Translations under genes and position numbers: made by a program
Source of the DNA: Pontiella sp.
GTDB lineage: Bacteria > Verrucomicrobiota > Kiritimatiellia > Kiritimatiellales > Pontiellaceae
Length of the DNA: 64,000 bases
Assembly (NCBI GenBank): GCA_050290185.1
Contig: JBNKHE010000001.1
Span: 226,713-290,712 of the forward strand
Direction: 5' to 3'
Shown here: one piece after another, positions 6,593 to 29,770 of the stretch
How positions within the stretch are numbered: the first letter of the stretch is position 1
Layout of the letters: the number at the start of each line of letters is the position of its first letter
The notes under the pieces: model-generated
Told to the model about the DNA's origin: nothing
The model's database searches: none
Seen by the model: the letters and a program-made list of their open reading frames with translations, nothing else

Positions 6593-6595
6593 CGA

Positions 6596-8892: not shown

Positions 8893-8900
8893 GATTTCTT

Positions 8901-9953
8901 TTACTTGGAAAACAGGTTCTTGTACTGGCCATAGCCTTCCTTTTCCAGGTCTTCCTTGGGGATGAAGCGCAGGGCGGCGGAGTTCATGCAGTAGCGTTTT
9001 CCGTTCGGCCGTGGTCCGTCATTGAAGACGTGACCGAGGTGCGAATTAGCGTGCTTACTTCTGATTTCCGTTCGTCGGCTGAAGAAGCTGTTGTCTTCCT
9101 TTTCGACGATGTTTTTCGGCTCCAGCGGACGGGTGAAACTGGGCCAGCCGGTGCCGGATTTAAACTTGTCCTTCGAGGAAAAGAGCGGCTCGCCGGATAC
9201 AACATCAACGTAGATGCCCTCTTTATGGTTGTCCCAGTATGCGTTGTGGAATGGCGGTTCGGTGCCGCTTTCCTGGGTGACCCGGTACTGCAGCGGGGTC
9301 AGTTTCTTTTTCAGCTCGTCCTTGGTGTAGGTGACGCGTTTTACGATGTCGGCGGTCGGGTCCATCTTGTCCCGGCCCTTACCCCAGACCTTGTCGAGGT
9401 ATTGGTCGCGCCCCGAACGGCTGCGGTAGTATTTGTACTTGATGGGATGCTCGCTGTGATAATTCTGATGATGATCCTCGGCGCGATAGAATTTTCTAGC
9501 GGGAAGGATTTCAACGGTAACCGGCTTGTTATAAATCCCGGAGTCCTGCAGTTCCTGCTTCGATTGTTCGGCGATCTCTTTCTGTTTGTCATCCTTGTAG
9601 AAGATGACGGGTCGGTATTGCGGGCCGCGGTCGACAAACTGCCCGCCGCTATCCGTCGGATTGATCTGCCGCCAGAATACATTCAGCAGCTGATGGTAGG
9701 TGATTTTGGCCGGATCATAGGTGACTTTCACCACTTCAACGTGGCCCTTTTCTGCATAGTCCCCGTAGGTGGGATCGAGCCCCGTGCCACCACTGTAGCC
9801 GGATACGGCTTCCTTCACGCCCGGCAACTCATCAAACGGGGTTTCCACGCACCAGAAGCAACCTCCTGCAAAAATGGCGGTTTCCGCCATGGGTTCGGCC
9901 GCTTGTAGAATGGATCCTGCAAAGGCCAGTACTGCGATTAAGATATATTTCAT
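8901..9953 (-). CDS. msrAB: Exported bifunctional peptide-methionine sulfoxide reductase MsrA/MsrB
   Basis: [10 protein letters not shown] (MsrA); [26 protein letters not shown] (MsrB); signal peptide begins at ATG 9953. Confidence 0.95.
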
Positions 9954-10064
9954 TTCAAACCTTCCTTTCATCTACTCCTATATTCGGATGTACTGTCTGG
10001 ATGTGACCGTAAATCGCAGATGATTTTCTCCTCGTCATACGGAAGAGGGTCGGAATAAATATCG

Positions 10065-11315
10065 ATGATGAATTCCACGCAACGTTTGATTTTGTTTACC
10101 CGGCTTCCCCAACCCGGAACGACCAAGACCCGAATGATTCCCCACTTGGGTGCGGAAGGTGCGGCGCAGCTGCAAAAGCAGATGACGGAGCATACGGTTC
10201 GCCAAGCCCGCAAAACCGGTGTGCCGATTGAAATCCGCTACACCGGCGGTTCGGAACAGCAGATGCGCGAATGGCTGGGCGGCGATCTCGATTATGCGGA
10301 ACAGGGCGACGGCGATCTGGGTGAACGCATGCGGCGGACGTTTGAAAAGCATTTTTCAACCCGGGCCGAGCGCGTGGTCATTGTCGGGTCCGACTGCCCT
10401 TCCAATGGCTGGAAAAACATGCAGGAGGCCTTTCGCGCGTTGGAAAACACGGATTGCGTGTTGGGTCCTGCGAGTGATGGCGGATACTATTTGATTGGTT
10501 TGTCTAGGGCTGGGACCGAGATCCAGCCCCTATTTGAGGGTATCGACTGGGGCGGTTCGGATGTATTAGAGCAGACCATGAAGGCCGCCGCCGGGCTTTC
10601 GATTCATCAACTTCAAATGCTTCACGACGTCGATCTACCGGAAGACATTCCTCCCAAGATTTCGGTCGTTATCCCAACCCTGAACGAAGAGACGCATCTG
10701 GCCCAAACGCTGGAACGTGTAGGCGAAGGCTTCAACGTCGAGGTGATCGTGGTGGATGGCGGCAGCACGGACGGAACGCGGGCGATTGCGCCCGATTGCC
10801 TGACGTGTTCGGAGGGACGGGCCGCGCAGCAAAACATGGGGGCAAAGGCAGCTTCGGGGGAACTTCTCCTCTTTCTGCATGCCGATACGATCCTTCCAAA
10901 CGGCTGGGATTGGATCGTGCGCGAAACATTGTCCGATCCGTCGGTCGATCTGGGTGCTTTCACCTTCAAGATCCGCGAGGCTTTCCCGGGGCAAAAGCTT
11001 ATCGAGAATGCCACCAACTGGCGCTCCCGTGTACAGCAGCTACCCTACGGCGACCAGGGGCTTTTCCTGAGCAAGGAAATCTTCGATGCGGTAGGCGGTT
11101 TCACGGATATACCGATCATGGAGGACTACGCCTTAGTTCGTTCGTTGCGCAAACATGGCCGCATCGTCACCGCTCCCGAATCGGCCGTTACCTCCGGCCG
11201 CCGCTGGAAACAGCACGGTGTTTTCAAGGTAACGCTGATCAACAAGCTGATGATCCTTGGTTACCACCTTGGGGTTCCTCCCGCCAAGCTCGCTCAATTC
11301 TATCGAAGTAAATGA
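10065..11315 (+). CDS. Fusion of TIGR04282 (DUF2064/CofC-like) and TIGR04283 (GT2) arsenosugar-associated transferases
   Basis: KTRMIP, GDLGERM, GSDCP, GPASDGGYYLIG, DVD; then SVVIPTLNEE, LFLHADT, PYGDQG, IMED, TSGRRW. Confidence 0.9.
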   Translation: MMNSTQRLILFTRLPQPGTTKTRMIPHLGAEGAAQLQKQMTEHTVRQARKTGVPIEIRYTGGSEQQMREWLGGDLDYAEQGDGDLGERMRRTFEKHFSTRAERVVIVGSDCPSNGWKNMQEAFRALENTDCVLGPASDGGYYLIGLSRAGTEIQPLFEGIDWGGSDVLEQTMKAAAGLSIHQLQMLHDVDLPEDIPPKISVVIPTLNEETHLAQTLERVGEGFNVEVIVVDGGSTDGTRAIAPDCLTCSEGRAAQQNMGAKAASGELLLFLHADTILPNGWDWIVRETLSDPSVDLGAFTFKIREAFPGQKLIENATNWRSRVQQLPYGDQGLFLSKEIFDAVGGFTDIPIMEDYALVRSLRKHGRIVTAPESAVTSGRRWKQHGVFKVTLINKLMILGYHLGVPPAKLAQFYRSK

Positions 11316-11345
11316 ATTAGGCTTCGCAGTGATGAATTCCCATGA

Positions 11346-11852
11346 TCACGCATTTTGTTTTTCAAAGATACCCAGAGCCCATTCGGTGGCATTTTTCAGA
11401 TCGGTTTCATCGGGATGGCCGGCGGCATCCTTCCATAGTTTCTTGCGCGACTCGGTGGGACCATAGCCGTGATCCTTCGGTAGGGCCTCCATCCATTCAA
11501 TCAGTTCCGGATCGATCGCGCCCTGGCAGATGAAATGGCCAATGATTTCACAATCCGGAATAAGTTTGGCCGTGGCATCAAGGCTTTCGGCCGCATGCTT
11601 GGAATCGGGATAGGCACCGAGAGTGGCAAACAGGGCCACCTTCTGCCCCGAGAGCCGTTTCATATAAAGCTGCATATTTTCATCCGCCGTGCCGTTTTCA
11701 ACCCAGAAGCCAAGCAGGATCAAATCGTAGTTGCACGGGTTGGGAGCCATCTCAACGCGACTTAAATCGGCACAAGGAAGTTCCAAGTGAATGGCTTGAG
11801 CCAATTTACGGGTGTTGCCGGTCTTGCTGGAATAGACGATCAAAGTTTTCAT
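11346..11852 (-). CDS. Flavodoxin family protein
   Basis: YSSKTGNT FMN loop; GFWV..G; FATLGA; HPDETD. Confidence 0.9.
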   Translation of the reverse strand: MKTLIVYSSKTGNTRKLAQAIHLELPCADLSRVEMAPNPCNYDLILLGFWVENGTADENMQLYMKRLSGQKVALFATLGAYPDSKHAAESLDATAKLIPDCEIIGHFICQGAIDPELIEWMEALPKDHGYGPTESRKKLWKDAAGHPDETDLKNATEWALGIFEKQNA

Positions 11853-12095: not shown

Positions 12096-12114
12096 TGTGG
12101 GGAATATCCCCACA
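12096..12114. promoter_or_regulatory. 19-bp palindromic operator-like site (perfect copy)
   Basis: TGTGGGGA-ATA-TCCCCACA, 42 bp upstream of ATG 12157. Confidence 0.7.
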
Positions 12115-12156
12115 CGCCACGCGACTCGACTAGTGGACCTAACCAAAGGAGACACT

Positions 12157-13341
12157 ATGCGAGTTATACGAAAAGCCGGATGGCTGTTGTTGATCGGAAC
12201 CGGATTGCTCTGGCCACAGCAGGGATGGGGAACGTTCCAGGGAGGAATTCTGGTATATGCATGGGACAGCAGTTCCGGCCTCACCCCTCCCCCCTCGACG
12301 TCCGCCCAACTTGATACCAATTCTAGCCAATCTTTCGGCACCAACAATCTGATAATATTTGATGGCTATTTCGAGGCCGGAACACATGTGGTTGAGGTAT
12401 CGAGCGGATCCCGCGGATATGTTCCTCGCCCAAGCCCCACCGACCCGGATGCCTTGAGCGATCCCTATTCGGCTTATGGAAATCCTCGCTATGTCCATAT
12501 TTCGGAAACCACGAATCTCGTGCCCGTCAGCTTCCAGTTTGACCCGGTGGTTACAGTTTCGGCGGTGGTGCGCGATGCATGGACCATGGAGCGGTTGGCC
12601 GACGCCTCCATCCAGTTCATCTTCGAAGGATCCACCGATAAAATCACTATTACCAAATACCCTTCAACGGCCACGTATGCATCAAACTGGCTCAGCGATG
12701 CATCGGGGAATTTCCCCACAAACACGATACTTTATCTCCACAATTATGACATACGCATGACCAAACCCGGCTACCTGCCGTTCATTGAAGCCAATGTGAT
12801 CAGCAATGCTCAGCCAGGGGATGTCATCGACCTTGGAACGATTTTCATGGAACCCATCGACAACAATACAAATCAGATTGCCGATGTGTGGGAGGCTGAA
12901 TTTTTTGGAACAAACAGCACTGTCACAGCCGAGGTAGACGTCGATGGAGACGGCATATCGAATCTCGGCGAATACATCACCGGAACCGATCCCACCAACC
13001 AACCGAGTTGCCTGCGGGTTGAGACCTCCCTCGCCACGAATGGGCTTTGGCTTACATGGCCCACGGAACCGGATCACACCTACCGCGTCTGCGGCACCAC
13101 GAATCCATGCGCCGACAGCTGGTTGCAGGTGGGGGGGCCGTGGACCGCCACCAACGGCCAATATGAAATGGTCTGGGCGGAAACCAACATGGATCTAAGC
13201 TGGAATAACGCCTATCGCGTGGAAGTCGTTCCATGCTGGTGGCAAGGAACCAACCAGGTGCTGATCAATACCAACATGCCTGTTTTTAAAGGAGGAACCA
13301 ATACGTGGGGAGGAGATCTAGATCTACCGCCGATCCCTTGA
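12157..13341 (+). CDS. Secreted protein with carboxypeptidase-regulatory-like beta domain, DxDGDG Ca-binding motif and PVC-type C-terminal domain
   Basis: AAGGAG RBS; signal peptide; VRDAWT..LADA..KPGY; DVDGDGISNLGEYITGTDP; LTW..YRV..W..YRVEV. Confidence 0.8.
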   Translation: MRVIRKAGWLLLIGTGLLWPQQGWGTFQGGILVYAWDSSSGLTPPPSTSAQLDTNSSQSFGTNNLIIFDGYFEAGTHVVEVSSGSRGYVPRPSPTDPDALSDPYSAYGNPRYVHISETTNLVPVSFQFDPVVTVSAVVRDAWTMERLADASIQFIFEGSTDKITITKYPSTATYASNWLSDASGNFPTNTILYLHNYDIRMTKPGYLPFIEANVISNAQPGDVIDLGTIFMEPIDNNTNQIADVWEAEFFGTNSTVTAEVDVDGDGISNLGEYITGTDPTNQPSCLRVETSLATNGLWLTWPTEPDHTYRVCGTTNPCADSWLQVGGPWTATNGQYEMVWAETNMDLSWNNAYRVEVVPCWWQGTNQVLINTNMPVFKGGTNTWGGDLDLPPIP

Positions 13342-13387: not shown

Positions 13388-13414
13388 TGTGGGGAAACTC
13401 TCCACAAAGCCTTT
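13388..13414 (+). repeat. 27-bp direct repeat copy 1, containing the 19-bp palindrome
   Basis: TGTGGGGAAACTCTCCACAAAGCCTTT, identical to 14453-14479. Confidence 0.9.
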
Positions 13415-13491
13415 TGTTCGCAATCTAGTATTTTTTGCTAGATTAGGTGTCCGTTGCAAACGGAGCACCAACGCATACGAAAGGACCTCAA

Positions 13492-13845
13492 ATGGAAGAG
13501 ACATCGAACCGAAAACTTGGCACCCGAAAAGATGGCAGTCTGTTTGATGAAGCAACCATTGAAGCCGTATGGATAAAAGGGGTGCCCGCGCAGGAAGTTG
13601 ACTCGCTCAGGAAAGACAGATACGGAGCATTAATGGCTCGTTCTGAATATGGCGAAACAACACGCCACGGATGGGAAATCGATCATATCATACCGGTTTC
13701 AAAAGGCGGAACAGACAGTCTGTCCAACCTGCAGCCTCTACATTGGGAAAATAATCGTTGCAAGAGCGATAACCTGCTCGATCTGGACCGCGAAGAATCC
13801 CGTATTCCACACGATACGCATGGTACAGACCGGCCATCATCATAA
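13492..13845 (+). CDS. Stand-alone HNH endonuclease
   Basis: GWEIDHIIPVSKGGTDSLSNLQPLHWENNRCKSD; AAGGA RBS. Confidence 0.88.
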   Translation: MEETSNRKLGTRKDGSLFDEATIEAVWIKGVPAQEVDSLRKDRYGALMARSEYGETTRHGWEIDHIIPVSKGGTDSLSNLQPLHWENNRCKSDNLLDLDREESRIPHDTHGTDRPSS

Positions 13846-13901
13846 ACAACAAAACCACGCCGTTAGATAAATATTTCAGGGATTGGGATGCTAACAGACA
13901 A

Positions 13902-14432
13902 ATGAACTTCCACGAATCAAGACTCTTAAGAATACGCCCCTTTCGGCAGGCATTGGCTGAGATTTTAATGGCGACGTTTGATCAAATGTCGGATGAAGAA
14001 TGGCTGAATTTCAGGCAACAGCAACTTGTTTTTTTTCAATCCTCCATCCCTCCCAAATCAAGCGAAACACTGAAGAACAAGTGGGATCGAGTGGTTCCCG
14101 CCGGGTGTATCAGCGTCATCAATGCGCAATCGGAATATGTCAGCGCAACGGTCGAAGCAATGATTGAAATAGCGGTTGGGACCCACACATCCAAGTTCAA
14201 TATACCGCTTTCGATTCTGTTGAAAACCACGAGATCCTCCCTTGCAAAAGACGCGGCTGCCCTCCCTCGCAATATCTTCAAGATTGGCATTCATACCATG
14301 GTGCTCACGCGGCTGGCTGCACATGCGCTCGTCCATGAAATACAGGTTGCGTTGACCTCCACGCAAAAGTCCAGGCCCAAGCGACTGGAGGTGGTATTTT
14401 GTATTCTTCCTCCGGAAGTCCTCAATGCATGA
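13902..14432 (+). CDS. Hypothetical protein
   Basis: 176-aa ORF filling the gap, same strand as neighbours; no recognisable family. Confidence 0.45.
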   Translation: MNFHESRLLRIRPFRQALAEILMATFDQMSDEEWLNFRQQQLVFFQSSIPPKSSETLKNKWDRVVPAGCISVINAQSEYVSATVEAMIEIAVGTHTSKFNIPLSILLKTTRSSLAKDAAALPRNIFKIGIHTMVLTRLAAHALVHEIQVALTSTQKSRPKRLEVVFCILPPEVLNA

Positions 14433-14452
14433 TACCGGTCGTGGCACCCTTT

Positions 14453-14479
14453 TGTGGGGAAACTCTCCACAAAGCCTTT
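14453..14479 (+). repeat. 27-bp direct repeat copy 2, containing the 19-bp palindrome
   Basis: Identical to 13388-13414. Confidence 0.9.
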
Positions 14480-14582
14480 GCTTCACCATTGCCAGAAACA
14501 CGTTAGACTCATTCGCATCATTTTACGGCACAGTCAGTAGCTTTCCGGGGATTCGTGTCCCCTTGAAATGGAGAAGGAATAG

Positions 14583-14891
14583 ATGGGACCATTGATGTAC
14601 AGACACCGACCGTACTACACGGCACTGATTGCCGCGGCCGTCGTTCTGGTGTTTGGTATGTGCGTGAGTTGCTGCCTGAAGAATCGGGTTGAGATCGGAG
14701 AGGCCAACCGTTCGACCGTAGCCTTGGTTATCTGTCTGACGGCCGCGATCTCCGGCGCTTTGGTGATCTCCGCCTTTGCCCGCTACACATTCACCCACCT
14801 CTGGAAAACACCCGATCCCGCCTTCGCGAAAAAAAAGCGGCAAAAAGGACGCAGACCGGGATACAACAAACCAGGTCGGGTAGATTCCTGA
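14583..14891 (+). CDS. Small membrane protein (2 TM, basic C-terminal tail)
   Basis: Two hydrophobic segments; GGAGAAGG upstream. Confidence 0.65.
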   Translation: MGPLMYRHRPYYTALIAAAVVLVFGMCVSCCLKNRVEIGEANRSTVALVICLTAAISGALVISAFARYTFTHLWKTPDPAFAKKKRQKGRRPGYNKPGRVDS

Positions 14892-14913: not shown

Positions 14914-16656
14914 TTAAAAATGCCAAATCGCTGAAACGAAGAGCTGGTGCTTGGTGACGTCGGAACGGACGGCTTGTCCTGCCAGGAGTGAGTCCCTGAC
15001 GTTGTTGCCTTGCTCAAAGATGTAGGCCACATCCAAAATGGTCTTTCCGGTTTCCTTACCGAGCGAGATCCCTGAACCGAGGCTGAAGCCCCAGTATTCG
15101 TCCGGCGCTCCAACAGCTGGGCGCTGCTCCCAGAACATGCCTCCGCGCAGCGGGATTTCCGTCTGCGACAGCACACACACATACTCACCTCCGAGGCGGA
15201 TGGACCAACAGTCGTCCAGCATTGAGGAGGAATGGGGTTCGCCGTTGACGGGATTTATGCGCGCTTCGCCTTCCGCCTTGTAGCTGTACTCCGACCAATA
15301 CGTTCGGCTAGTATCCATGGAGATATAGAGCCGATCGCTCCAGCGCCACAGGGCACCGACCGACCAGTAGAGCGGGAAGGTATATTCCACATCGCGTGTC
15401 TGGGCATCCCGAAACACGGTGTTGGCCACCTGGACCAGATTGCTATCGAACGTGGAAACCTGATGATCGACTCGCTTGGTCTGCTTGCCATAGCCCGTCC
15501 ATGGCAGATCGACCGTTGCGCCAATCGTCAGCTTTTCGCTAGCGGCCCAGAGCGCACCGAGAGTGGCATTGATGCCATGAAAATCTTCCGTATCATTATC
15601 CTCACGGTATATACCTGCAACCGTATAGGCATCTACCTGCACGTTGGTTTGCACATCGGAAAACGTGTTGGTTACCGTTTCTTCTGGAACAGGAATCGTA
15701 ATTGGATCGGACGGATCACCGGTGTATCGCTCTCCGGAATAGGTATTTACCGCCGTCGAACTGCGTGTGGTAGTGATGTCGGAAATGCTGTCGGACGAGC
15801 CCGAGTATTCCGCAACGAGTGTGGACTCAATCGGATTTCCGCGGCTGGCTCCGTCGGTATAGAGGTTGACTGCGATCCCGAGTGAAAACTGCGGCGTAAC
15901 ATCAAGAGCAAAGGCCGGAGATAATGCATCGATGGTTCCCTCCTGCCTAAAATCGATGCTGGAAAGCAGCGTGGAATTAAGCACTTGATGGATATCGCTT
16001 CGCGCCGCTGTCGTGACATCGGCCACAATTGTCAGGCTCTGGTTGACATCGCTATAATACAGGTTCGTGGACTGAACGAAGGTTTGGTTGATATTGGTGT
16101 CGATATTCTGACTGGCCTGCCCGCTGAAACGGGCCGTAAATTCATAGGTATAATCATAGGCTTCCTGATAGTTGAGGGAAACCACGGCATTGCGGTCGTT
16201 CAGGAGAAATGGATAGACGGCGCTGAGATAGTTGAGTTCGCTACTGGCATAACCATCATCTCCGGATTCCAGTGCACTGGTTTGGGATTCGTGGGCATCT
16301 TTCTCCGCCGAAAAGCGATAGACCGCCGAAACCTCCGGGAATTCAAGCTGCACGAGGCCTGCCGGATTCCACGAAGCGGCCGTCGCATCGTCGGCGACAG
16401 CCGTGAACGCTCCGGCCTGCCCGAGCGCACGCGCACCGGAACCGACCGGGAGCGGTGCGGCGAAAATGGTTGGAGGACGGAAGCCGGCATTGGCCGGCGG
16501 ATCAGGCTCCTCCAGTTGCCCCGTCGGTCCGGCATGGCTGATGTCCAATTCAACCGCTCCCCCCGGCGTCACGATCACCACAGGCACCGCGCGCAGCGCG
16601 CTGGAAAACGCGATGCTGGCAGCAAAAATGACGAAGGATATACGGAACTGCTTCAT
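14914..16656 (-). CDS. FadL/OmpP1/PorV-like outer-membrane beta-barrel with large surface insertions
   Basis: GSGARALGQAGAFTAVADDATAASWNPAGL hatch motif; C-terminal aromatic WHF; signal peptide begins at ATG 16656. Confidence 0.85.
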   Translation of the reverse strand: MKQFRISFVIFAASIAFSSALRAVPVVIVTPGGAVELDISHAGPTGQLEEPDPPANAGFRPPTIFAAPLPVGSGARALGQAGAFTAVADDATAASWNPAGLVQLEFPEVSAVYRFSAEKDAHESQTSALESGDDGYASSELNYLSAVYPFLLNDRNAVVSLNYQEAYDYTYEFTARFSGQASQNIDTNINQTFVQSTNLYYSDVNQSLTIVADVTTAARSDIHQVLNSTLLSSIDFRQEGTIDALSPAFALDVTPQFSLGIAVNLYTDGASRGNPIESTLVAEYSGSSDSISDITTTRSSTAVNTYSGERYTGDPSDPITIPVPEETVTNTFSDVQTNVQVDAYTVAGIYREDNDTEDFHGINATLGALWAASEKLTIGATVDLPWTGYGKQTKRVDHQVSTFDSNLVQVANTVFRDAQTRDVEYTFPLYWSVGALWRWSDRLYISMDTSRTYWSEYSYKAEGEARINPVNGEPHSSSMLDDCWSIRLGGEYVCVLSQTEIPLRGGMFWEQRPAVGAPDEYWGFSLGSGISLGKETGKTILDVAYIFEQGNNVRDSLLAGQAVRSDVTKHQLFVSAIWHF

Positions 16657-16658
16657 AT

Positions 16659-16745
16659 TGCGGGGGAATCTACCACAATCGAAGCCGCCCCCAAACGTAC
16701 GAAACATCGGAAAGTCGTTGATTTTTTGTAGGGGATTCCCCCACA
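16659..16745. promoter_or_regulatory. Two copies of the 19-bp palindrome in the divergent barrel/ECF intergenic region
   Basis: TGCGGGGG-AAT-CTACCACA (16659-16677) and TGTAGGGG-ATT-CCCCCACA (16727-16745). Confidence 0.62.
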
Positions 16746-16863
16746 TTTTCTGCGCGGAAAAAGAATATACTTTCATCGCAACACTGCCATAATTGCTTTG
16801 GTTCTATGTGAATTTAGACGTCCTCTGGTGAGAGCCCAACCAACGAAAAGCTAGACAGTTTGT

Positions 16864-17478
16864 ATGTATAAGATCCATCCAGATTCTGATCAGGAAATCA
16901 TCGATGCGATACGCGGAAAAAATCGCCTCGGGTGGGAGCTTTTGTTCGCCCGGTACGATCCGCTCATTCAATCCATCGCACGATGGCCCAAATGGAATTT
17001 GTCGGAAGACGAGCAACAGGATGTCTGTCAAAACATCCACATGCATCTCCAGACCGCCCTGCCGACCTTCAGGCAGCAAAGCTCGCTCTCATGGTTTATC
17101 AAGAAAATCGCCATGCGCCAATGCGTCAACGAAATTCGGCGGCAGAAGCGCTGGCGAACCGTCATGACACCATCCATGCAGAAAACGACCGACGGAAACT
17201 GGAATGAGATGGAGTTTGCGTCTACCCCAGACAACGACCCCTATAACGAAGCCGTCCAGCACGAACGACAACGACTCCTCGAGTCAGCCCTGCAGCATTT
17301 ACAGCAGACCTGCAAAGACAGCATCCGCATGTTTTATCTGCAACACCTCTCCTACCGGGAAATGTCCGAACAACTTGGAATAGCCGTTAATACCGTCGGC
17401 AGTCGGCTCTCCAAATGTCTCGACAAACTTCATCACGAACTCCGGCAACATCCATCGTTCGAAAGGGCTGAGCAATGA
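16864..17478 (+). CDS. ECF RNA polymerase sigma-70 factor
   Basis: Region 2 (DVCQ..SLSWFIKKIAMRQCVNEIRR) and region 4 (LSYREMSEQLGIAVNTVGSRL). Confidence 0.93.
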   Translation: MYKIHPDSDQEIIDAIRGKNRLGWELLFARYDPLIQSIARWPKWNLSEDEQQDVCQNIHMHLQTALPTFRQQSSLSWFIKKIAMRQCVNEIRRQKRWRTVMTPSMQKTTDGNWNEMEFASTPDNDPYNEAVQHERQRLLESALQHLQQTCKDSIRMFYLQHLSYREMSEQLGIAVNTVGSRLSKCLDKLHHELRQHPSFERAEQ

Positions 17479-18185
17479 GTGATATAACAACTCTGATCTG
17501 GGCATATCTCCACGACGAACTGTCCCCGGAGAGCAGGAACCATTTTGAAAGTGCGCTGGAGGATAGTCCGAGTCTGCGCAAAGCCCTTGAAGAACAGCGG
17601 GCAACGCACGAAGAGCTAAAAAGCATCCTGCCCCTCATCGAGGCCGAAACAGCAAACGATGAGCAACAGGAAGAACAGTTGATCGCTGAATGGGAAGCGG
17701 AACATCCGGAATTCGCCGAACCGCCGCAGCAGCAAAAGTCCCAAGGCCGAATCATGCGCTTCGCGATACCACTCGCCGTTGCGGCTGCGGCGTGCGTGGT
17801 ACTGCTCGCCCTCCCCGGACATCAGGGCCCGGTCTACTGGCAGAACACGCTTTATGGTACCGCCCCGCAGTTGCGCGGCGAATCCGCAGCCCATCCGCGC
17901 TACAACCAAACCGAACTCGAGCAGGTCAGCCGGCAGCTGCAAAACATTATTGAAGACCACATCGCAAGGCTTCCCGACTCTGCCGAACCGTGGAAGCTCA
18001 AGATTCACCTGCAGGAACTGGCCGGAGGTTATCTGGCCGTAGAAGTCTCCGGACACCCCGCAAACCGGCCGAAACGCTCTCGGACATGGGATGCAACCTT
18101 CCAGGGGAAGGATCGTTTCGATGCAGAGGCTTCCGGGTTCGGCAAACGCATCGCCAACGATCTCGCGGAACAGGACGTACCATGA
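17475..18185 (+). CDS. Putative single-pass anti-sigma factor
   Basis: ATGA overlap with the ECF gene; N-terminal ASD-like AYLHDELS..FE (no Zn ligands); one TM segment. Confidence 0.8.
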   Translation: MSDITTLIWAYLHDELSPESRNHFESALEDSPSLRKALEEQRATHEELKSILPLIEAETANDEQQEEQLIAEWEAEHPEFAEPPQQQKSQGRIMRFAIPLAVAAAACVVLLALPGHQGPVYWQNTLYGTAPQLRGESAAHPRYNQTELEQVSRQLQNIIEDHIARLPDSAEPWKLKIHLQELAGGYLAVEVSGHPANRPKRSRTWDATFQGKDRFDAEASGFGKRIANDLAEQDVP

Positions 18186-20083
18186 TTCGTAAAGTGCGGC
18201 TTCGATCCGGATTGCTGATCGCCGCAATGGCCCTTGTGTTCTCCGGCTGCACGTCCATTCGGAGCTACCGCAGCGCCGATCCCTACGTGATCACCCATCA
18301 TACCTGGTGGAACCATTACCAGCGCGGTCGCCTCCTGCTGCAAGAAGGAAACTATGCCGCAGCCCGCAAAGATTTCGAAATCGCCCTAGGACGGGTTCCG
18401 GGCGCGCGCTATCCCTATGCCCAGGAACGATGGCGCGCGCGCACCTACGGCATGCATATGATCGAGGGCTACTTCCCGCATCGGGAACTCGGAATCTGCC
18501 TGTTTGAAATGGATGAGCCCGCAGAAGCGTTGACCCTCTTGGAAACCTCCATGAAATTGGAACCCTCTGCTCGTGCAAAATTCTATATCAACCGCACCCA
18601 CGCAAAACTTGCCGAGGCCGCGGCACCTCCCCCCGTCATCGCGATCGATCCCCTCCCGGACTGGACCGGACAGAGGAACTACATCCTGCAGGGAACCGCC
18701 CTGGGATCAAACCGGATAGCCCGTCTCCGCATCAATGGCGAGCCGGAATTCATCGAACTGGCCACCCATCTGGTCCGTTTCCGAAAAAGCATCCCGCTCA
18801 CGGAGGGACACAATTCGATCCACATCGACGCCGAAGATATCTCCGGCAAACAGACCTCGACCAATCTGGTGCTGAGGGCCGACTGGACGCCTCCGCAAAT
18901 CTACCTCAGCCGCAACGGCACGGACCTTGTCATTACCTGCCGGGACAACCTCGGCCTCCATCAGTTGCAAACCGGCAACCGCACTCTATCCACCGACGGA
19001 ACGGAGTATACGTTTACCCAGCCGATCCTGCCGGACCAGCCCATTCGACTGACCGCCACCGATTGGGCCGGAAACAAAACCGACTGGGCGCTGTCTGAAA
19101 AAGAACTGCTGCATCTGGCCAGACGCACCGAAGCCGGACCGCCACGGGTACAAATCGACAATGCCGGAAAGAACCTCGTACTCTTCAATCCGGAATACAG
19201 CATGGATATTCGAGTGGATGATGATGTTGCGTTGAAATCGGTTGAACTCAACGGCGAAAGCTTGTTATCACGCACCACGCCCCTGTTCCGAACCCTTCGC
19301 CGCATTCCGCTTGTACCGGGCACCAACAATCTGGTCGTGATCGCCGAGGATTTTGATGGCAACCGAACGGAGAAGCGCGTCAGTGTAATTTACCGCAACC
19401 CCGAATATCTCGACCGAATCTACCGCCTCGCCGCCATGTGCTCGCCTCTTTCCGGCGAAATATCCGATCCGGCAATGGCACTACGGATCGATCACCTGAT
19501 CGAGAACACCCTGACCAGGGACCCGGTTCGATTCTACCTGCTCGCTCCAGATAACGAAACCCGGCAACTGCAAAGCGAACAGACCCTCTCGAATAGCGCC
19601 CTGGCCGACCCGCGCGCATTATTGAAAGCCGGTAAACTGCTGGATGCCGACTTGCTCTTTGCAACCCGGATATTGAGCGATGCCCCCGGGCAGACCGTTT
19701 ATACGCAGGTGCTGGACGCCCATAGCGGAGAGGAGCTGTTCATCGAGGATGTTTACGTGGAGAACCCCGATCGCTGGCCAGAGCAGTTGGATGGGCTGGT
19801 CATGAAGATTGAGCAACGTTTCCCGCTCATCCAAGGACGTGTACATACGTCGGGAAGCAGGCTGGTCATCAATGCCGGGGAGCGGAATGGCGCACAAAAG
19901 GGCATGCGGATGCTCGTGATCCGCTCCCAGGGATCCTTCGAACAGGGCCGCGTGGTCATGGACTCAAAGCGTCCGGTGGAACTCGTTATTTCCAGGGTTG
20001 CGTCCCAAACCTCCGAGGTTATAATGCCTCACGGACAACCCAGAGACTCTGTTCATGCGGGAGACTATGTTTTTTCAAGATGA
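18182..20083 (+). CDS. Lipoprotein with TPR region, Ig-like repeats and CsgG/TolB-N-like C-terminal region
   Basis: Lipobox FSGC; TPR-like HYQRG..AARKDF and RELGICL; repeated L..G.N.I.I.AED..G; AGKLLDAD. Confidence 0.75.
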   Translation: MIRKVRLRSGLLIAAMALVFSGCTSIRSYRSADPYVITHHTWWNHYQRGRLLLQEGNYAAARKDFEIALGRVPGARYPYAQERWRARTYGMHMIEGYFPHRELGICLFEMDEPAEALTLLETSMKLEPSARAKFYINRTHAKLAEAAAPPPVIAIDPLPDWTGQRNYILQGTALGSNRIARLRINGEPEFIELATHLVRFRKSIPLTEGHNSIHIDAEDISGKQTSTNLVLRADWTPPQIYLSRNGTDLVITCRDNLGLHQLQTGNRTLSTDGTEYTFTQPILPDQPIRLTATDWAGNKTDWALSEKELLHLARRTEAGPPRVQIDNAGKNLVLFNPEYSMDIRVDDDVALKSVELNGESLLSRTTPLFRTLRRIPLVPGTNNLVVIAEDFDGNRTEKRVSVIYRNPEYLDRIYRLAAMCSPLSGEISDPAMALRIDHLIENTLTRDPVRFYLLAPDNETRQLQSEQTLSNSALADPRALLKAGKLLDADLLFATRILSDAPGQTVYTQVLDAHSGEELFIEDVYVENPDRWPEQLDGLVMKIEQRFPLIQGRVHTSGSRLVINAGERNGAQKGMRMLVIRSQGSFEQGRVVMDSKRPVELVISRVASQTSEVIMPHGQPRDSVHAGDYVFSR

Positions 20084-21720
20084 AATCGTACTTCCAGCCC
20101 ATTCTGCTTAGTGCCGTCGTATTGATGGTCGCGGCCTGCGGCCACAAGGAGCCAGAGACATCGCTGCAGAAAACCGGTCCGTCAACAGACCAGCCGCTTA
20201 ATTATTATGCGTTGGTGATCGGTGTCAGCGATTACTCGAGCACCGGCTGGCCGAATCTGGGAACCGCAGGCGATGACGCCAAGGCCATGGGCTCCGTTCT
20301 GCGAGACCGTTATGGCTTTAACGTCACGGAATTGACGGACAAGCAGGCAACCCGGGGGAATATCCTGCGTGCACTTGATCGGTTTATGCAGCTGACGGCC
20401 AACGATGCACTGCTCATCTATTTTGCCGGCCACGGCTATTACGACAAGCAGATGGACGAGGGCTACTGGATCCCATATGGCGCCAAGCGGCAGCGGATGG
20501 ACCAGCCAGCCAAGGAAGATTGGCTCTGGAACAGCAGCATCAACCGGGTGCTCGGCGCCCTGCCGGCCAGACATGTCTTGCTGGTCGCCGATACCTGCTA
20601 CGGCGGATCGCTTTTCCGGGGGGACGACAATCCCGACAAGTCCGGAAACTGGTACCGGCGCGCCATGTCGGTTCCGTCGCGCTACCTCATCACCAGCGGC
20701 AATCTGGAACCGGTGCTCGACAGCGGTATTCGCCATAGCGTCTTTGCACAGCAAATCCTCAACTACCTCCAATACACCGATGAGGATGTCTTTTCGGCAT
20801 CGGATATCGCCATATCCATCCGCTCCAAAGTGAGCGAGCTGACGGGACAGCTCGTGCGCATGGGCCCGTTGGCCTCCCCGGCCAATGCCGGTGGGGAATT
20901 TGTATTTGTTCGCGGTGAAACCGCATTGCCGCCGATCGAACCCGCTTCCGAAACAGCACCACAGATCACATCATTCAGCAGCACCGGAACACGCGGAGCG
21001 CTTGAGGATCTGGCCAACCAGATGGAACGCTATTCCAGCAAGGCATCAGACGACAGCTTTGTCCGTCCCCGCGTTCTCGCCTGCCTCGGACCAACCGGAG
21101 ACAATCCCGAAGAAACGGCGATGGTGCGCAATCGATTGTACGAGAGTCTGGATACAATCGGGGGATGCATCCTGGTTGAACGCGAAGCCTTCGACACCCT
21201 CCTGCAAGAAATGGAACTGGGGCAATCAAGGTTGGCCGACAAACGAGCCACGACCGAAATCGGAAAACTGCTTCCTGCCAGTCTGATTCTGTTCGGGGAA
21301 ATCATTCCCGTGGGCAACCGACAGGAAATCCACATCCGGATTGTCGATACCGAAACCTCGCGCGTACTCAGCTCCACTTCCGCGATGTTCACAAGCTACG
21401 ATGAACTGGAGGCCACCTGCCAGAAACTCGCCCGGCAGATCATGACGACCGTGAATCAGGCGCGCCCGGTATTGCTGGAGGCAAACGTTACGGACAACGG
21501 AACACTGCAAGCCGGATGGGGCCGATTCCACGGAGCCCACATCGGCGACACGTTCAAGATCATCACACGCGAGGCCGTCGGAACCATTTCCCAACGGGAT
21601 GTCCTGCTGGGAACAGCCCGTCTTCTTTCGCTGGGCGAAGAAACCGCCGAGTTCCAACCGGAATGGCGCAACTCCGAAACCAACCAGCCGGCTAGCCTGT
21701 GGCTGAAAGCAACGCTGTAA
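20080..21720 (+). CDS. Caspase-like (peptidase C14) lipoprotein with CsgG-like domain
   Basis: Lipobox VAAC; ALVIG; YFAGHG (His) and ADTCYGG (Cys) dyad; HSVFA; LVERE..LLQEMEL..IGKLL. Confidence 0.88.
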   Translation: MKSYFQPILLSAVVLMVAACGHKEPETSLQKTGPSTDQPLNYYALVIGVSDYSSTGWPNLGTAGDDAKAMGSVLRDRYGFNVTELTDKQATRGNILRALDRFMQLTANDALLIYFAGHGYYDKQMDEGYWIPYGAKRQRMDQPAKEDWLWNSSINRVLGALPARHVLLVADTCYGGSLFRGDDNPDKSGNWYRRAMSVPSRYLITSGNLEPVLDSGIRHSVFAQQILNYLQYTDEDVFSASDIAISIRSKVSELTGQLVRMGPLASPANAGGEFVFVRGETALPPIEPASETAPQITSFSSTGTRGALEDLANQMERYSSKASDDSFVRPRVLACLGPTGDNPEETAMVRNRLYESLDTIGGCILVEREAFDTLLQEMELGQSRLADKRATTEIGKLLPASLILFGEIIPVGNRQEIHIRIVDTETSRVLSSTSAMFTSYDELEATCQKLARQIMTTVNQARPVLLEANVTDNGTLQAGWGRFHGAHIGDTFKIITREAVGTISQRDVLLGTARLLSLGEETAEFQPEWRNSETNQPASLWLKATL

Positions 21721-22384
21721 CAACCTCTTCGTCCGGACCCACGAGGCCCCGCATGGCCGCATGACGCATAAAGCTGGTTGCGGCGTATTGAAAATCCGCG
21801 CCTGTACTGAAATCCATCTTTGCCCGGATGCGTTCCCGGAAGCTTTCCACCGTCTTAACGCTTACGTTCATCATTGCGGCAATGCGTTGTGGAACATACC
21901 CACATCCCGTGAGGCAGAAAACCTCGGCCTCCCGCTTCGAAAGTTGCAACAGGCCTTCCTGTGTTACTTGCTCCTGCCGACGTAACTCACTCAAATACAG
22001 CATCTTCTTTCGGGCAGAACGAATGGCATCAACAAGATCCTTCATCGAATCCTGCGGAGTCACGTATCCGTCCGCTTCGGCTTGCAGGGCTTGCCCCAGA
22101 TCGGAGCTCTCAAACTCCGGGTCCCACGAAAGCGCCACAATGCTCAACCCGCAATAATCGCTTTTCAATTGCTGCAGCGAGGATATCCCGGCACTGCTCA
22201 ACGAAACATTCATGACCAGAACATGTGGCTTTTGCAGCTCGATCAAAGCCCTCACATCATCAATCCCGGATGCGATCCCGCACACATCAATACACGACTC
22301 CTGCTTTAGCCGCTCTACCATCATTCCACGCATCAGGCCATACTCATGGGCAACCACGACCCGAATCTTCTCATTCCGCACCAT
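21692..22384 (-). CDS. NarL/FixJ-type regulator with degenerate receiver and LuxR HTH
   Basis: AGGAGG RBS; LSKREAEVF..IAAMMNVSVKTVESFRERIRAKM; receiver lacks the DD pair, phospho-Asp and Lys. Confidence 0.87.
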   Translation of the reverse strand: MVRNEKIRVVVAHEYGLMRGMMVERLKQESCIDVCGIASGIDDVRALIELQKPHVLVMNVSLSSAGISSLQQLKSDYCGLSIVALSWDPEFESSDLGQALQAEADGYVTPQDSMKDLVDAIRSARKKMLYLSELRRQEQVTQEGLLQLSKREAEVFCLTGCGYVPQRIAAMMNVSVKTVESFRERIRAKMDFSTGADFQYAATSFMRHAAMRGLVGPDEEVVTALLSATG

Positions 22385-22439
22385 AACAACCTCCTGGTTC
22401 GATTTTACATAAGTGTTTGTCTCACCAGTCGGATGTGTA

Positions 22440-22487
22440 TGTAGGAATCTTCCCCACAAAATTAAAAAAAGGGGAAAATCCCCCACA
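22440..22487. promoter_or_regulatory. 19-bp palindrome plus a weaker second copy upstream of the NarL-type regulator
   Basis: TGTAGGAA-TCT-TCCCCACA (22440-22458); AAGGGGAA-AAT-CCCCCACA (22469-22487). Confidence 0.62.
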
Positions 22488-24529: not shown

Positions 24530-27433
24530 TTAATGGCCTTCGATCTTGAAGAATTCCTGGCTCGAAGAAGCTGGCACCGATACGGAGGTCGTCGTGCCGA
24601 CTCCCGTAATTCCATTCGTGACCTCCGTCCAGGTCGAAGCCTTCAGACTGGTCTTGTGCATAATCCTGTAGGAGATACCATACTCCGAATCCCACCTCAA
24701 GGAAGCCATGCCTCCGGAGATCACCATCGTCTGGATATCAGGAGAAACCCCAGGTCCATCGGCTCGCCTCACGAGCTGGTACGCACTGCTGTAGCTGGAC
24801 CCGAATTCGATCATGCCACTCGCATCGGGCGTGACCTCTGCGATAACCGCATAGTTCGTGCCCAGTACATAGTTGGTGGGATTTGCCACGAGCGCAGCCC
24901 GGTCCAGAGCGATCGTGGCATCCGGCATATTCGCGGTGCCGGCCGTAAGGCTGAATGTCTTCGTATCATCGCCGCGGTTCCACGTCCAATAGATGTAGAC
25001 ATCGTAGGCGGCATTGGTATCCAACCCGGTAAACCGTGTCCAACCGTTGTCATTGTCGCCAATGGTAGCTCCCCAGATCGTGTTGGAAAGCGCGGTGAAT
25101 TCGTCGTAGTACCCTGCCCACGACGCGGGGCCATCGTCCCAGGTGCTAACACCAACTTCAAAACCGACCGTGTTCGTGTTGGATTCGTTTGCGGCAGACA
25201 ACTGCACCAGCCCGGGAACCACCCATTTATTCCCTGTGGAAAAGTAGTTGTACCACGTACCGATTCCACCGGTAGTCGGAGCAACCAGCACAATTCCATC
25301 CGCTACCGATCCAGAGCCCTCAAACCCTGCCATATTGACGTTGTACAGCTCCAGGGCAGCGGCTGCAGGAGTCGCGAAATGATCGAACCAGTAGAACGAC
25401 CACTCGTTGGTGTGGGAGTACGTCAACCCGTCCGTCAAACCGTAACCACTCGTAATCATCATGACCGTTTGCAGCCCGTTGGAAAGCGCGGTTGCGCCGT
25501 AGCTGACCGTGTTGGTGTCCGACAATCCGTACAGCGACGATTCGGAGGCTACAAGGTCGCCGTTCAGGTACAGCTCCATGGAATCGACTCCAGCGTCAAC
25601 ATTGTACATGGTACCGGAAATATCGACCACATCGTTGGTAAAACGCGATCCCTCCGCAGGAATCATCTCCCCTTCGGCATATGGGACAAAAAAGGAAACC
25701 GGCACGTCCGAGCGCTTCACAATCTGCATGCCGGACCATCCGCCGTCGCTGTTCTGGCTTCTAACCTGGATCACACCGTTCGAACTGGGAACAACGTCGG
25801 CGAAGACCGCATAGTTCTGGCCTTCCACGAGATTCGAATAGGAACCGGCATTGGCCTGCACCGGCGTAACCGTCGCGGATGGCAACGGCGCCATTCCCTC
25901 GGTAACCGTGAAGGTCGACATGCTCGTGGTCCACCCCCACGTGAAGTAGCAATAGATGTCGTAGGTGGCGTTCGTATCGAGCCCGCTGATGACCATGTTG
26001 CCGTCGAACCCGCCGGAACCGAGATAGCCATTGAACAACCCTGCGTAGCCAAATCCACCGTTGCTCCAGTCGTGTGCCGTACCGGACCACGTCAGGCTGA
26101 TCGTGTTCGTGCCGTACGCATTGTTGATCGTGAGCGGCGAAGCCGGAGTCCACGATTCCCAGCCATTCACGGTGGGCGCGACCAGATTGTTCCAACGGTC
26201 GCTGGAGGTGAGCGCTGGAGCCTTGACCACGGTCCCGTCGGGCACTGTCATGTTAGAGCCAGTGCGGCCGGCATAGTTGATATTGTACAGCTCAGATGCA
26301 TACAGAGCGGGTTCTGGAACGGTATCGATGAAAGTAAATGACCATACGTTGGTAAAATACTGGAGATCCGTTGTCGTCGTGACGACCATTCCGGTGTGCG
26401 TACCGGCGGCAATCGAAGAACCGTCGTAGGTTACAATGGCCGAGGCAGCCCCCGGAGCGACATTGGTGGTTGCAACAGAAGCGCCGTCGACATAGAGATC
26501 CAGAGTATCGATGGTCAGCCCAAAGGGATACATGGTAGCCGAGACGATGCGGTTGGTGGTCGAGTCCCCATCGGCAGGAACAACTGGACCCTCAGCAACC
26601 GGGAACTGCAAAACGAAACCAGCCGGAACCAGCGTTTCGTCGGAAATGGCCACCGCATCGATCTTGCCACTGTATCCGTCGCTTTTGCTACCCTGCCACA
26701 TGCCCCGGCAAACGGACCAGTCGCCTCCGTTCCAGGTGTGTGCCTGATCAGCACCCGTACCCGTGCCGGAATCGAGTTCCAACCCGGCATTCGACATGGT
26801 ATTCGACGCAATCAATTGGCCATCAAGGTAGAGTAAAAGATTACTATCATCCGCCGTTGCCGCGAGATGATGCCACTGGTCTGCGTTGATTTCCACCGCA
26901 TCCGGTCCGGTCACTTCCGTCTGCACGCCCGACACGTCTCTCCATAGAACCTGCGGACGGCCCTGGTCGTTCAGGAGCAAGCGAAAGGAAGGCGCGTCTG
27001 CCACGTTTCCTGCGCGACATACCAAAACGTCCCACTGATGGGATTCCACCGTGAACACCGACTCGACCGTGAGGGTGACCGGTGTGATGGTACGGATATC
27101 GACGCCCGAGGGCACCGTGTTGCTCACCGTACGCAGATCTTCCCAATCCCACGAGCCTACTCCGACTCCCAGGATGCTCCAGTCGCCGAAATAGCTGTTT
27201 GTGTTCGACCATATTTCCTTCCCAGCACTCCCGTCGGTCCACAGGCTCAGATCGTTTCCGTTTCCGGATTTATCGGTTGCGGACACCACGAAGGCATCAT
27301 TTGTCGTATAAGGAAGGCTTACCCCATTCGCCGCAAAGATATCGTCGAAATCCCACAGCGCTATCGTCGACGCCATGGCACTGCTGCCGATGGCAAGCAA
27401 CCCCAGTAATAACCACTTTAGTTTCATTTTCAT
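24530..27433 (-). CDS. Large secreted non-catalytic protein: LamG domain, duplicated beta-sandwich modules and C-terminal domain
   Basis: Signal peptide (start 27433 or 27427, AGAGGAG RBS); WHHLAAT..LYLDG..GKID; internal duplication. Confidence 0.82.
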   Translation of the reverse strand: MKMKLKWLLLGLLAIGSSAMASTIALWDFDDIFAANGVSLPYTTNDAFVVSATDKSGNGNDLSLWTDGSAGKEIWSNTNSYFGDWSILGVGVGSWDWEDLRTVSNTVPSGVDIRTITPVTLTVESVFTVESHQWDVLVCRAGNVADAPSFRLLLNDQGRPQVLWRDVSGVQTEVTGPDAVEINADQWHHLAATADDSNLLLYLDGQLIASNTMSNAGLELDSGTGTGADQAHTWNGGDWSVCRGMWQGSKSDGYSGKIDAVAISDETLVPAGFVLQFPVAEGPVVPADGDSTTNRIVSATMYPFGLTIDTLDLYVDGASVATTNVAPGAASAIVTYDGSSIAAGTHTGMVVTTTTDLQYFTNVWSFTFIDTVPEPALYASELYNINYAGRTGSNMTVPDGTVVKAPALTSSDRWNNLVAPTVNGWESWTPASPLTINNAYGTNTISLTWSGTAHDWSNGGFGYAGLFNGYLGSGGFDGNMVISGLDTNATYDIYCYFTWGWTTSMSTFTVTEGMAPLPSATVTPVQANAGSYSNLVEGQNYAVFADVVPSSNGVIQVRSQNSDGGWSGMQIVKRSDVPVSFFVPYAEGEMIPAEGSRFTNDVVDISGTMYNVDAGVDSMELYLNGDLVASESSLYGLSDTNTVSYGATALSNGLQTVMMITSGYGLTDGLTYSHTNEWSFYWFDHFATPAAAALELYNVNMAGFEGSGSVADGIVLVAPTTGGIGTWYNYFSTGNKWVVPGLVQLSAANESNTNTVGFEVGVSTWDDGPASWAGYYDEFTALSNTIWGATIGDNDNGWTRFTGLDTNAAYDVYIYWTWNRGDDTKTFSLTAGTANMPDATIALDRAALVANPTNYVLGTNYAVIAEVTPDASGMIEFGSSYSSAYQLVRRADGPGVSPDIQTMVISGGMASLRWDSEYGISYRIMHKTSLKASTWTEVTNGITGVGTTTSVSVPASSSQEFFKIEGH

Positions 27434-29743: not shown

Positions 29744-29770
29744 TTTTATATCTCCTGGTTTCAATCCAGA

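Follow-up and report, generated by a model that had tools for sequence, protein, structure and literature searches.

A conserved Pontiella cassette joins a caspase-like lipoprotein to a sigma factor of the ECF family and to a membrane anti-sigma factor with a predicted Arg-Gly cleavage site

The stretch of Pontiella sp. DNA analyzed here (64,000 nucleotides; assembly GCA_050290185.1, contig JBNKHE010000001.1, positions 226,713 to 290,712 of the forward strand; hereafter, the window) carries a cassette of five genes, in which a gene for a FadL-like outer-membrane barrel stands divergently beside an operon for a sigma factor of the extracytoplasmic function (ECF) type, an anti-sigma factor with one transmembrane (TM) helix, a lipoprotein with TPR repeats and a lipoprotein with a caspase-like domain. 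A check of the open reading frames (ORFs) of the window found all five where a preliminary description of this DNA had placed them, the barrel lying beside the other four, and bore out the translational coupling by ATGA overlaps at 17475, 18182 and 20080 as well as the intact His-Cys dyad (His118/Cys173) and lipobox (Cys20) of the caspase. The "CsgG" label given to the lipoprotein domains stands as a family likeness, although FlgT/CsgG-like is the better name, the CsgG Pfam match covering only positions 41-99 of 210 and hence less than the full-length CsgG domain of the curli channel. The features of the cassette are as follows.

14914..16656, minus strand: FadL/OmpP1-family outer-membrane beta-barrel, 580 residues, signal peptide, C-terminal Phe (ORF 14914-16776; likely true start ATG 16656)
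16864..17478, plus strand: ECF sigma factor with sigma2 and sigma4 (Pfam Sigma70_r2, r4_2)
17475..18185, plus strand: anti-sigma factor, 236 residues, with N-terminal helical anti-sigma domain, one Ala-rich TM helix (17760-17816), linker and small periplasmic alpha/beta domain
18182..20083, plus strand: TPR / Ig-like / FlgT-CsgG-like lipoprotein, lipobox Cys23 (Pfam TPR, Glucodextran_B (Ig-like), FlgT_C)
20080..21720, plus strand: caspase-like (C14) / FlgT-CsgG-like lipoprotein (Pfam Peptidase_C14, CsgG), with lipobox, dyad and Asp66/Asp171/Asp214
17868..17879, plus strand: QLR-G in the anti-sigma factor, where site-1 cleavage is predicted (codon of Arg134 at 17874)
20611..20622, plus strand: LFR-G of the caspase, in the loop that follows its catalytic Cys, a predicted self-cleavage or self-inhibition site that would mimic the site in the anti-sigma factor
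20986..20997, plus strand: GTRG in the caspase linker (Arg305)

Apart from one weak ECF match, none of the five proteins has a paralogue in its own genome, and the homologues, judged by source name, appear to belong to the Kiritimatiellales. The three Arg-Gly motifs lie where the preliminary description had reported them; as counted in the single sequences, Arg-Gly pairs occur at chance level in both the caspase (4 seen, 2.8 expected) and the anti-sigma factor (1 seen, 0.65 expected), and it is conservation that separates the motifs, since Arg134 of the anti-sigma factor and Arg180 of the caspase are kept almost or entirely without exception (counts below) while the linker Arg305, rejected as a conserved site, is Arg in only 17 of 65 close orthologues.

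The ECF factor, made up of sigma2 and sigma4 only, is coupled to a protein with an N-terminal helical domain and a single TM helix, which is the arrangement expected of a class I transmembrane anti-sigma factor. Its N-terminal domain is structurally akin to RsiW, MucA and RslA (Z 6.1-6.6), and, though the zf-HC2 Pfam score is above cut-off, the zinc motif HxxxCxxC occurs in 0/146 homologues, so that the protein falls outside the zinc-binding anti-sigma (ZAS) group. Arg134 is found in all 26 close homologues, in 51/52 ORFs derived from cassette loci and in 147 of 151 representatives with a median identity of 24%, the remaining four carrying Lys (three) or Asn (one); the only residue more conserved among these representatives is one alanine of the TM helix. 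Gly occupies P1' in 126 of the 147 representatives with Arg134, the consensus being (P/L/A)-x-(Y/L/F/V)-R-G about 14-25 residues beyond the TM helix, and an alignment-free count places hydrophobic-Arg-Gly/Ser 8-32 residues past this helix in 112/146 proteins against 18/146 in a control window. The segment around Arg134 is a coil in the predicted model, within a predicted loop roughly 20 residues outside the membrane. The lack of conservation in orthologues that the preliminary description had named as fatal to its proposal thus did not occur. A candidate enzyme for the subsequent step, an RseP-like M50 site-2 protease of 465 residues with HExGH and LDG motifs, scores above cut-off elsewhere in the genome. 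Fold neighbors of the small periplasmic domain are TolB-N, CsgG, PelC, FlgT, LptE and ribosome-hibernation-factor folds (Z 6-8), a likeness that, as far as the models go, allows a like-with-like docking of this domain on the CsgG-like domains of the lipoproteins. We also observed matches that cover the periplasmic and/or TM half of the anti-sigma factor but not its N-terminal domain (L109:13858-14400; G511:C2:35524-35928; G549:C67:28035-28460; G121:C7 and C19), the L109 protein retaining YRG; these could possibly be extra substrates or decoys.

The caspase domain matches Peptidase_C14 (PF00656, 60 bits), scores below cut-off with the CHAT profile and finds MALT1 and metacaspases in Foldseek, its top caspase-fold matches being MALT1. 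The dyad His118/Cys173 is present in 120/120 homologues and, together with Asp66, Asp171 and Asp214, in 55/55 caspase domains of the locus set; Arg180, in the Phe-Arg-Gly loop seven residues after the catalytic Cys, is found in 120/120 homologues and in 51/55 of the locus set, the loop itself being of low confidence in the model. In MALT1 the pocket is formed by Asp365, Asp462 and Glu500 and dimerization activates the enzyme (PMC4357240), the cleavage consensus being LXP/SR-G (PMC4659944), and the characterized C14 members other than caspases favor Arg or Lys (PMC5756287). Asp66, Asp171 and Asp214 would accordingly make up an acidic S1 pocket equivalent to that of MALT1, a prediction drawn from the sequence and fold. 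In every caspase form inspected, the protease follows a signal or TM segment and would therefore be periplasmic; in many distant homologues the caspase is TM-anchored, and a juxtamembrane Arg-Gly, considered as a constant feature of these forms, was found in only some of them.

The E. coli sorting rule ties an Asp at position +2 of a lipoprotein to the membrane of anchoring. Since Asp occupies +2 in 39/59 parsed caspase orthologues and in 0/63 parsed homologues of the TPR lipoprotein, the sequences suggest that the caspase lipoproteins are anchored in the inner membrane and the TPR lipoproteins in the outer membrane.

The linkage of the two proteins is a further line of evidence. A search of 251 genomes of the class, compared by hand, gave 30 anti-sigma matches of full length (E<=1e-27); a caspase lies at most 6 kb away from 28 of them, and the remaining two sit at contig ends in genomes that carry the caspase on another contig; the absence of co-occurrence elsewhere, against which the preliminary description had staked its proposal, was consequently not what we found. 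Anchored on the TPR lipoprotein, a search of a collection of species genomes yielded 411 loci, the best 80 of which were examined: among 71 scorable cassettes, 45 have both genes, 18 neither, seven the caspase only and one the anti-sigma factor only. At three loci of the Desulfobacterota type (L113, L130 and L133, two of them with a visible cytoplasmic CHAT protease), the anti-sigma factors are soluble, of the zinc type, and bear P(I/V)R(G/A)S, so that motif and protease share the same side of the membrane. In a single case, L105, both motifs have decayed together, the anti-sigma factor reading K-S and the caspase loop lacking its Arg. The structure prediction of the complex that had been proposed in the preliminary description was run for the caspase and the periplasmic part of the anti-sigma factor and supports their association weakly (score 0.40; best control 0.04); at least 93% of contacts are common to the runs, with partner pLDDT of at least 79, and the mark applied is reached by 116/157 solved and 2/215 mismatched pairs, 18 of the solved pairs and both mismatches lying at or below 0.60.

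Taken together, we consider it probable that the caspase serves as a site-1 protease, cutting the anti-sigma factor in the periplasm on the C-terminal side of Arg134. The co-occurrence of the two genes, the position of Arg134 as the most conserved residue outside the TM helix, the acidic S1 pocket, the periplasmic placement of both partners and the presence of a site-2 protease all sustain this part of the earlier proposal, from which the linker GTRG has to be dropped; the cleavage itself is what we infer.

A number of observations weigh against this assignment. A phylogenetically independent co-occurrence test (FastTree), with three loci with truncated TPR genes outside the tree and seven contig-cut loci outside the count, was not significant, there being about two informative pairs, none opposite, and a sign test p of 0.5. 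An intact caspase occurs in the seven cassettes without this anti-sigma factor, and several full-length caspase matches in the 251 genomes have no anti-sigma gene nearby, the protease therefore having other work too; conversely, the cassette L078 has the anti-sigma factor and no adjoining caspase. The TPR lipoprotein holds YxRG in 18 of 20 caspase-less cassettes, so that conservation of an Arg-Gly motif alone is no proof of a cut. The pocket residues were matched to those of MALT1 by their position in the fold (topology) rather than by structural overlay, and the caspase of the window has Gly and not Asp at +2, which leaves its own membrane unsure. Lastly, the profile comparison between the periplasmic domain of the anti-sigma factor and the CsgG-like domain was not significant (E 0.057) and the fold comparisons score in a middling range (Z 6-8); with no usable ESM Atlas match either, homology of these domains was set aside. 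As a separate observation, a CRISPR-like repeat array (L078:17600-21968) lies a few kb downstream of the caspase-less cassette.

The remaining two proteins would act at the outer membrane. The barrel matches Toluene_X/FadL (PF03349, 39.8 bits against a cut-off of 29.7), keeps an N-terminal hatch-type motif, GSGARALG..GAF.A.ADDATAASWNP, and a terminal Phe (39/43), and measures 580 residues here against about 430-480 in distant cassettes. Scans with Pfam and NCBIfam profiles gave no TonB-receptor or FecR family match at E<=0.1, no solved structural relative of the barrel was found by sequence, and the barrel has no conserved Arg-Gly. The TPR lipoprotein, predicted to be anchored in the outer membrane because 63/63 parsed homologues lack Asp at +2, shares a paralogous tail with the caspase lipoprotein (hhalign 99.3%), and the best fold matches of the caspase tail are to FlgT.

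Gene neighborhoods in relatives reveal what is constant and what is exchanged. In a survey of 61 related genomes, a caspase match was found in 16 and a near full-length orthologue in 12, the present genome among them; the five-gene order is complete in 7 of 20 retrieved stretches, another four end at contig edges, two are a TIR version and the rest are unrelated caspases, an outcome in keeping with the conserved neighborhood that the preliminary description had asked about. In the best 80 of the 411 loci, the barrel and the TPR lipoprotein make up the constant part, along with a partner that has a C-terminal CsgG-like domain. Partners with a caspase are the caspase lipoprotein, a TM-anchored caspase or TIR- or kinase-TM-caspase chains; those without it carry a kinase, TIR, nucleotide cyclase or cytoplasmic CHAT domain N-terminal to the TM helix, and the sister cassettes with such replacements lack this anti-sigma factor. 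The distribution is patchy, with several copies in some genomes. On these sequence comparisons, the caspase is one of several putatively exchangeable outputs on a constant chassis of barrel, TPR lipoprotein and CsgG-like domain. Among the variants we noted receptor-like fusions with CsgG-like domains that join an intact periplasmic caspase to a cytoplasmic TIR domain (L086, L098, L110, L124) or to a cytoplasmic kinase (L072, L083, L091, L105, L109, L121), some without ECF and anti-sigma genes nearby; Desulfobacteria proteins with a caspase inserted within the TPR lipoprotein and without the Phe-Arg-Gly loop (L127:5619-8519, L134:4806-7658); and nucleotide-cyclase-TM-CsgG-like receptors, with or without CHAT, on the same chassis (L113:5445-8657, L122:7799-10588, L114, L116).

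The cassette is flanked by further genes and by two kinds of candidate regulatory sites, of which the strandless ones are palindromes.

12096..12126, plus strand: palindromic box and, overlapping with it, the second promoter of ECF type (GGAATATC...CGACT; site 12101(+)), before the secreted protein
12157..13341, plus strand: secreted protein with a weak TSP3-type repeat, adjoining the barrel in at least six close relatives
13388..13406, no strand: palindromic box before a small HNH-domain ORF (palindrome scan)
14453..14471, no strand: palindromic box before a small membrane-protein ORF, 14583-14891 (palindrome scan)
16659..16677, no strand: palindromic box where the barrel gene starts, shared by close relatives and overlapping, on the minus strand, an element like a sigma70 extended -10
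16727..16745, no strand: second palindromic box between barrel and ECF gene (palindrome scan)
21692..22384, minus strand: NarL/LuxR-type regulator with pseudo-receiver, convergent with the caspase gene and overlapping its 3' end, conserved in the close clade
22427..22453, minus strand: ECF-type promoter GGAAGATT...CGACT upstream of the LuxR-type gene, best genome-wide match (22453(-))
22440..22487, no strand: two weaker palindromic boxes before the LuxR-type gene (starts 22440 and 22469), one overlapping the ECF -35 element

Of 15 close-clade loci, 12 carry an orthologue of the LuxR-type gene and the remaining three stop short of where it would lie; none of the 65 distant loci carries one. The phospho-acceptor position of the LuxR-type protein, placed by the receiver consensus, is Asn in 11/11 aligned orthologues, instead of the Asp of two-component regulators; the protein has several conserved Cys, and no cognate kinase adjoins it. 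The pattern GGAA(G/T)ATT...CGAC(T/A), which we take to be an ECF-type promoter from its likeness to the general ECF consensus, is present in 15/15 aligned upstream regions. In its strict form, derived from the close clade only, it has 10 matches in distant loci, 7 of them directly before the anti-sigma gene; a relaxed form, set after the distant-locus data had been seen, occurs in 21/36 windows before distant anti-sigma genes against 34/8704 of background, in 4/51 before barrels and in 0/38 before the ECF gene of distant loci. Within the window, no such promoter above 9 bits precedes the ECF gene or the barrel, and, genome-wide, most matches beyond the two window sites are intragenic, counts below 19 bits equaling those of shuffles.

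The palindrome is a 19-base element, TGTGGGG(A/G)ATTCCCCACA, found at 12096, 13388, 14453, 16659, 16727, 22440 and 22469; it has 8 genome-wide sites of at least 23 bits against 0 in five shuffles, and occurs in 13/15 close and 1/65 distant loci, the matrix having been trained on the close ones. Because regulator and box have a common distribution and boxes precede the regulator's own gene, we infer that the LuxR-type protein binds the box. Outside the window the palindrome stands upstream of three paralogous secreted proteins, two shown with LamG, PA14 and TSP3 domains. Three such paralogues (L138:5019-9755, L140:7717-12393, G000:C1:332507-333874) have a common N-terminal LamG-type start, each behind one or two boxes, and are candidate regulon members. 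Between the secreted protein and the barrel (13447-14891), the window holds the small HNH ORF, an ORF without assigned function and the small membrane ORF, two of the three behind identical palindromic boxes.

Cleavage at Arg134 by the caspase would fit into the following sequence of events. The FadL-like barrel and, with it, the TPR/Ig lipoprotein of the outer membrane would sense an outside cue, for which the lectin-domain targets suggest a surface or glycan; the FlgT/CsgG-like domains, which are paralogous in the two lipoproteins, would then gather caspases and activate them, much as dimerization does for MALT1, the Phe-Arg-Gly loop being released or cut. The anti-sigma factor, docking through its small domain of similar fold, would be cut at Arg134, after which the housekeeping RseP-type protease would cleave the Ala-rich helix and free the ECF factor. 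From the GGAAGATT...CGACT promoters this factor might transcribe both the pseudo-response regulator of the LuxR type and the neighboring secreted protein, its targets in distant cassettes being presumably the anti-sigma, TPR and caspase genes themselves, and the LuxR-type protein, acting on the palindromic boxes, may tune the barrel, the cassette and the large secreted proteins with lectin domains in a two-tier regulon. A broader view, which we regard as tentative and on balance doubtful, would make the chassis a widespread, modular trans-envelope receptor without earlier description, in which the barrel and the outer-membrane TPR/Ig lipoprotein nucleate a FlgT/CsgG-like assembly, clustering switches on the output that a given cassette carries (a paracaspase-like protease in the periplasm, or else a cytoplasmic CHAT, a kinase, a TIR domain or a cyclase), the anti-sigma factor is recruited through its like fold and the Arg-Gly cut frees the sigma factor, thereby forming a bacterial counterpart of death-receptor/MALT1 signalosomes.

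The same genes can be read differently. Were the caspase mainly self-cleaving or engaged in remodeling an envelope complex, Arg134 would be a docking or structural residue and the ECF factor would be freed by lost protection and by housekeeping DegS/Prc-type proteases, as in cell-surface signaling. Such self-processing draws support from the Arg180-Gly loop, as conserved as the dyad in close homologues, from the persistence of caspases in the 7 cassettes without the anti-sigma factor and in the TIR- and kinase-TM-caspase fusions, and from an Arg-Gly in the TPR protein that is kept regardless of the caspase; we nevertheless judge it unlikely, given that Arg134 lies in a predicted unstructured linker where, among 151 proteins, only Lys (3) or Asn (1) is tolerated, that the same motif recurs in soluble anti-sigma factors beside cytoplasmic CHAT proteases, and that the anti-sigma factor almost never occurs without the caspase.

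Two further readings concern the purpose of the cassette. The barrel, the TPR lipoprotein and the caspase could form an export and maturation machine for large secreted proteins, akin to PorV/PorU of type IX secretion, whose expression alone would be controlled by the sigma and anti-sigma factors: an ORF of at least 900 residues adjoins the barrel in 20/60 barrel loci, several with adhesin or lectin domains, and PorV/PorQ-family profiles give the barrel weak scores. These reach 35.4 bits where 90 are needed, and we do not retain a type IX link; the SprA search, without a match in the genome and the control genomes alike, is uninformative. The caspase-less cassettes pair the chassis with a kinase, TIR, cyclase or cytoplasmic CHAT, which are signal outputs, the barrel lacks a conserved Arg-Gly, and a caspase match in only 16 of the 61 related genomes is unlike an essential sorting step, all of which makes this machine rather improbable. 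An immune sensor, whereby phage or competitor attack is detected at the surface and the caspase (or TIR or kinase in sister cassettes) drives defense or cell death, seems to us very improbable. In its favor, TIR, kinase, cyclase, CHAT and caspase domains are typical effectors of conflict systems (PMC8195603), DdvA/DdvS governs a defense island (PMC11506125), the distribution is patchy with several copies per genome, and an HNH ORF sits behind a palindromic box; yet the predicted targets are secreted lectin- or adhesin-like proteins and the cassette itself, and no cas or CBASS gene was recognized among the ORFs of window positions 1-30000, where no scan with defense profiles was made. This last reading is about the cue and the output, and the cleavage step could hold alongside it.

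The proposed cleavage of the anti-sigma factor by the caspase has several partial precedents. Site-1 followed by site-2 proteolysis of a single-pass anti-sigma factor is known for DegS/RseA/RseP, as is, for FecA-FecR-FecI, an outer-membrane protein encoded beside the sigma and anti-sigma factors (PMC11506125, PMC10028731). The Pontiella cassette has the latter trait, is predicted to have the former, and differs in that the predicted site-1 enzyme is a dedicated, co-encoded cysteine protease of clan CD, the barrel is FadL-like instead of TonB-dependent, and there is no FecR domain. A close system is DdvA/DdvS of Myxococcus xanthus (PMC11506125), with an ECF factor, a single-pass anti-sigma factor and a periplasmic caspase-fold protease proposed, and only proposed, to cut the juxtamembrane linker before RseP; there, the TPR-CHAT protease lies in the same chain, the anti-sigma domain is zinc-bound and the regulon is a CBASS-CRISPR island, whereas here a separate C14 lipoprotein faces a separate putative substrate with a defined Arg-Gly and without zinc motif, alongside an outer-membrane barrel and a TPR/Ig lipoprotein. 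As regards regulons, the promoters predicted here precede the LuxR-type gene and the secreted protein.

Craspase (Csx29/Csx30/CASP-sigma; PMC10028731), shown in the cytoplasm, and SAVED-CHAT/PCaspase/PCc-sigma (bioRxiv 10.1101/2023.06.23.546230), activated through oligomerization, likewise place a sigma factor under caspase-fold proteolytic control, by a cut in its inhibitor or in the sigma factor itself; both act in the cytoplasm, with CRISPR target RNA or cyclic oligoadenylate as the trigger, while the present protease is predicted to be exported, membrane-anchored and not CRISPR-linked, no Cas gene being among the conserved cassette genes, which sets it apart from type III-E Craspase and the cytoplasmic TPR-CHAT that Cas7-11 binds there. 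With human MALT1 (PMC4357240, PMC4659944), the best structural match, the caspase has in common the predicted acidic pocket and, putatively, the Arg-Gly consensus and an activation by dimerization in a signaling assembly; it lacks the death and Ig domains of MALT1, is a periplasmic bacterial lipoprotein with a FlgT/CsgG-like tail and about 20% identity, and its protease activity is predicted. Metacaspase operons with sigma-70 factors have been noted in Myxococcus and some other genera, with no anti-sigma factor, barrel, CsgG-like lipoproteins, cleavage motif or mechanism in the available part of that paper (PMC3501461), and caspase-ECF neighborhoods are noted in PMC8195603, in its available part without this architecture. 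A full-text literature search, with subscription journals and bioRxiv supplements outside its scope, did not bring up any paper that describes the cassette; the words "caspase" and "CsgG" are absent from the main text, and from part of one supplement, of the ECF re-classification (PMC7826278), and a later ECF group could mention the cassette. We conclude that the cassette exists as described and is conserved, that it has apparently not been reported before, and that it probably represents a variant of regulated anti-sigma proteolysis for which the predicted bond and promoter can be named.

These findings bear on a class of proteins, the exported bacterial caspase homologues, most of which have no known substrate, and on the notion of a caspase-fold enzyme as site-1 protease of a membrane anti-sigma factor, proposed and not shown for DdvA. 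The question is directly testable in this cassette, where the enzyme is a protein of its own, the scissile bond (Arg134-Gly135) and a reporter promoter are predicted, and point mutants can serve as controls. That caspase, CHAT, kinase, TIR and cyclase replace one another on a single barrel and lipoprotein chassis points to a general platform for outside-in signaling in Desulfobacterota and PVC bacteria; the resemblance to MALT1 is of interest for the origin of clustering-activated, Arg-specific signaling proteases.

Farther out in the window, positions 904-11852 hold what we take, from their motifs, to be radical-SAM-like, arsenite methyltransferase-like, peroxiredoxin-like, DedA/TVP38-like, mercuric-reductase-like and glycosyltransferase genes, a cluster similar to those for arsenosugar or arsenic handling, and in addition MsrAB and flavodoxin genes. 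On the other side of the cassette, positions 24530-27577 and 28376-32152, both on the minus strand, would by their motifs code for a LamG-like secreted protein of large size and for two glycosidases of the GH43/CBM6 type.

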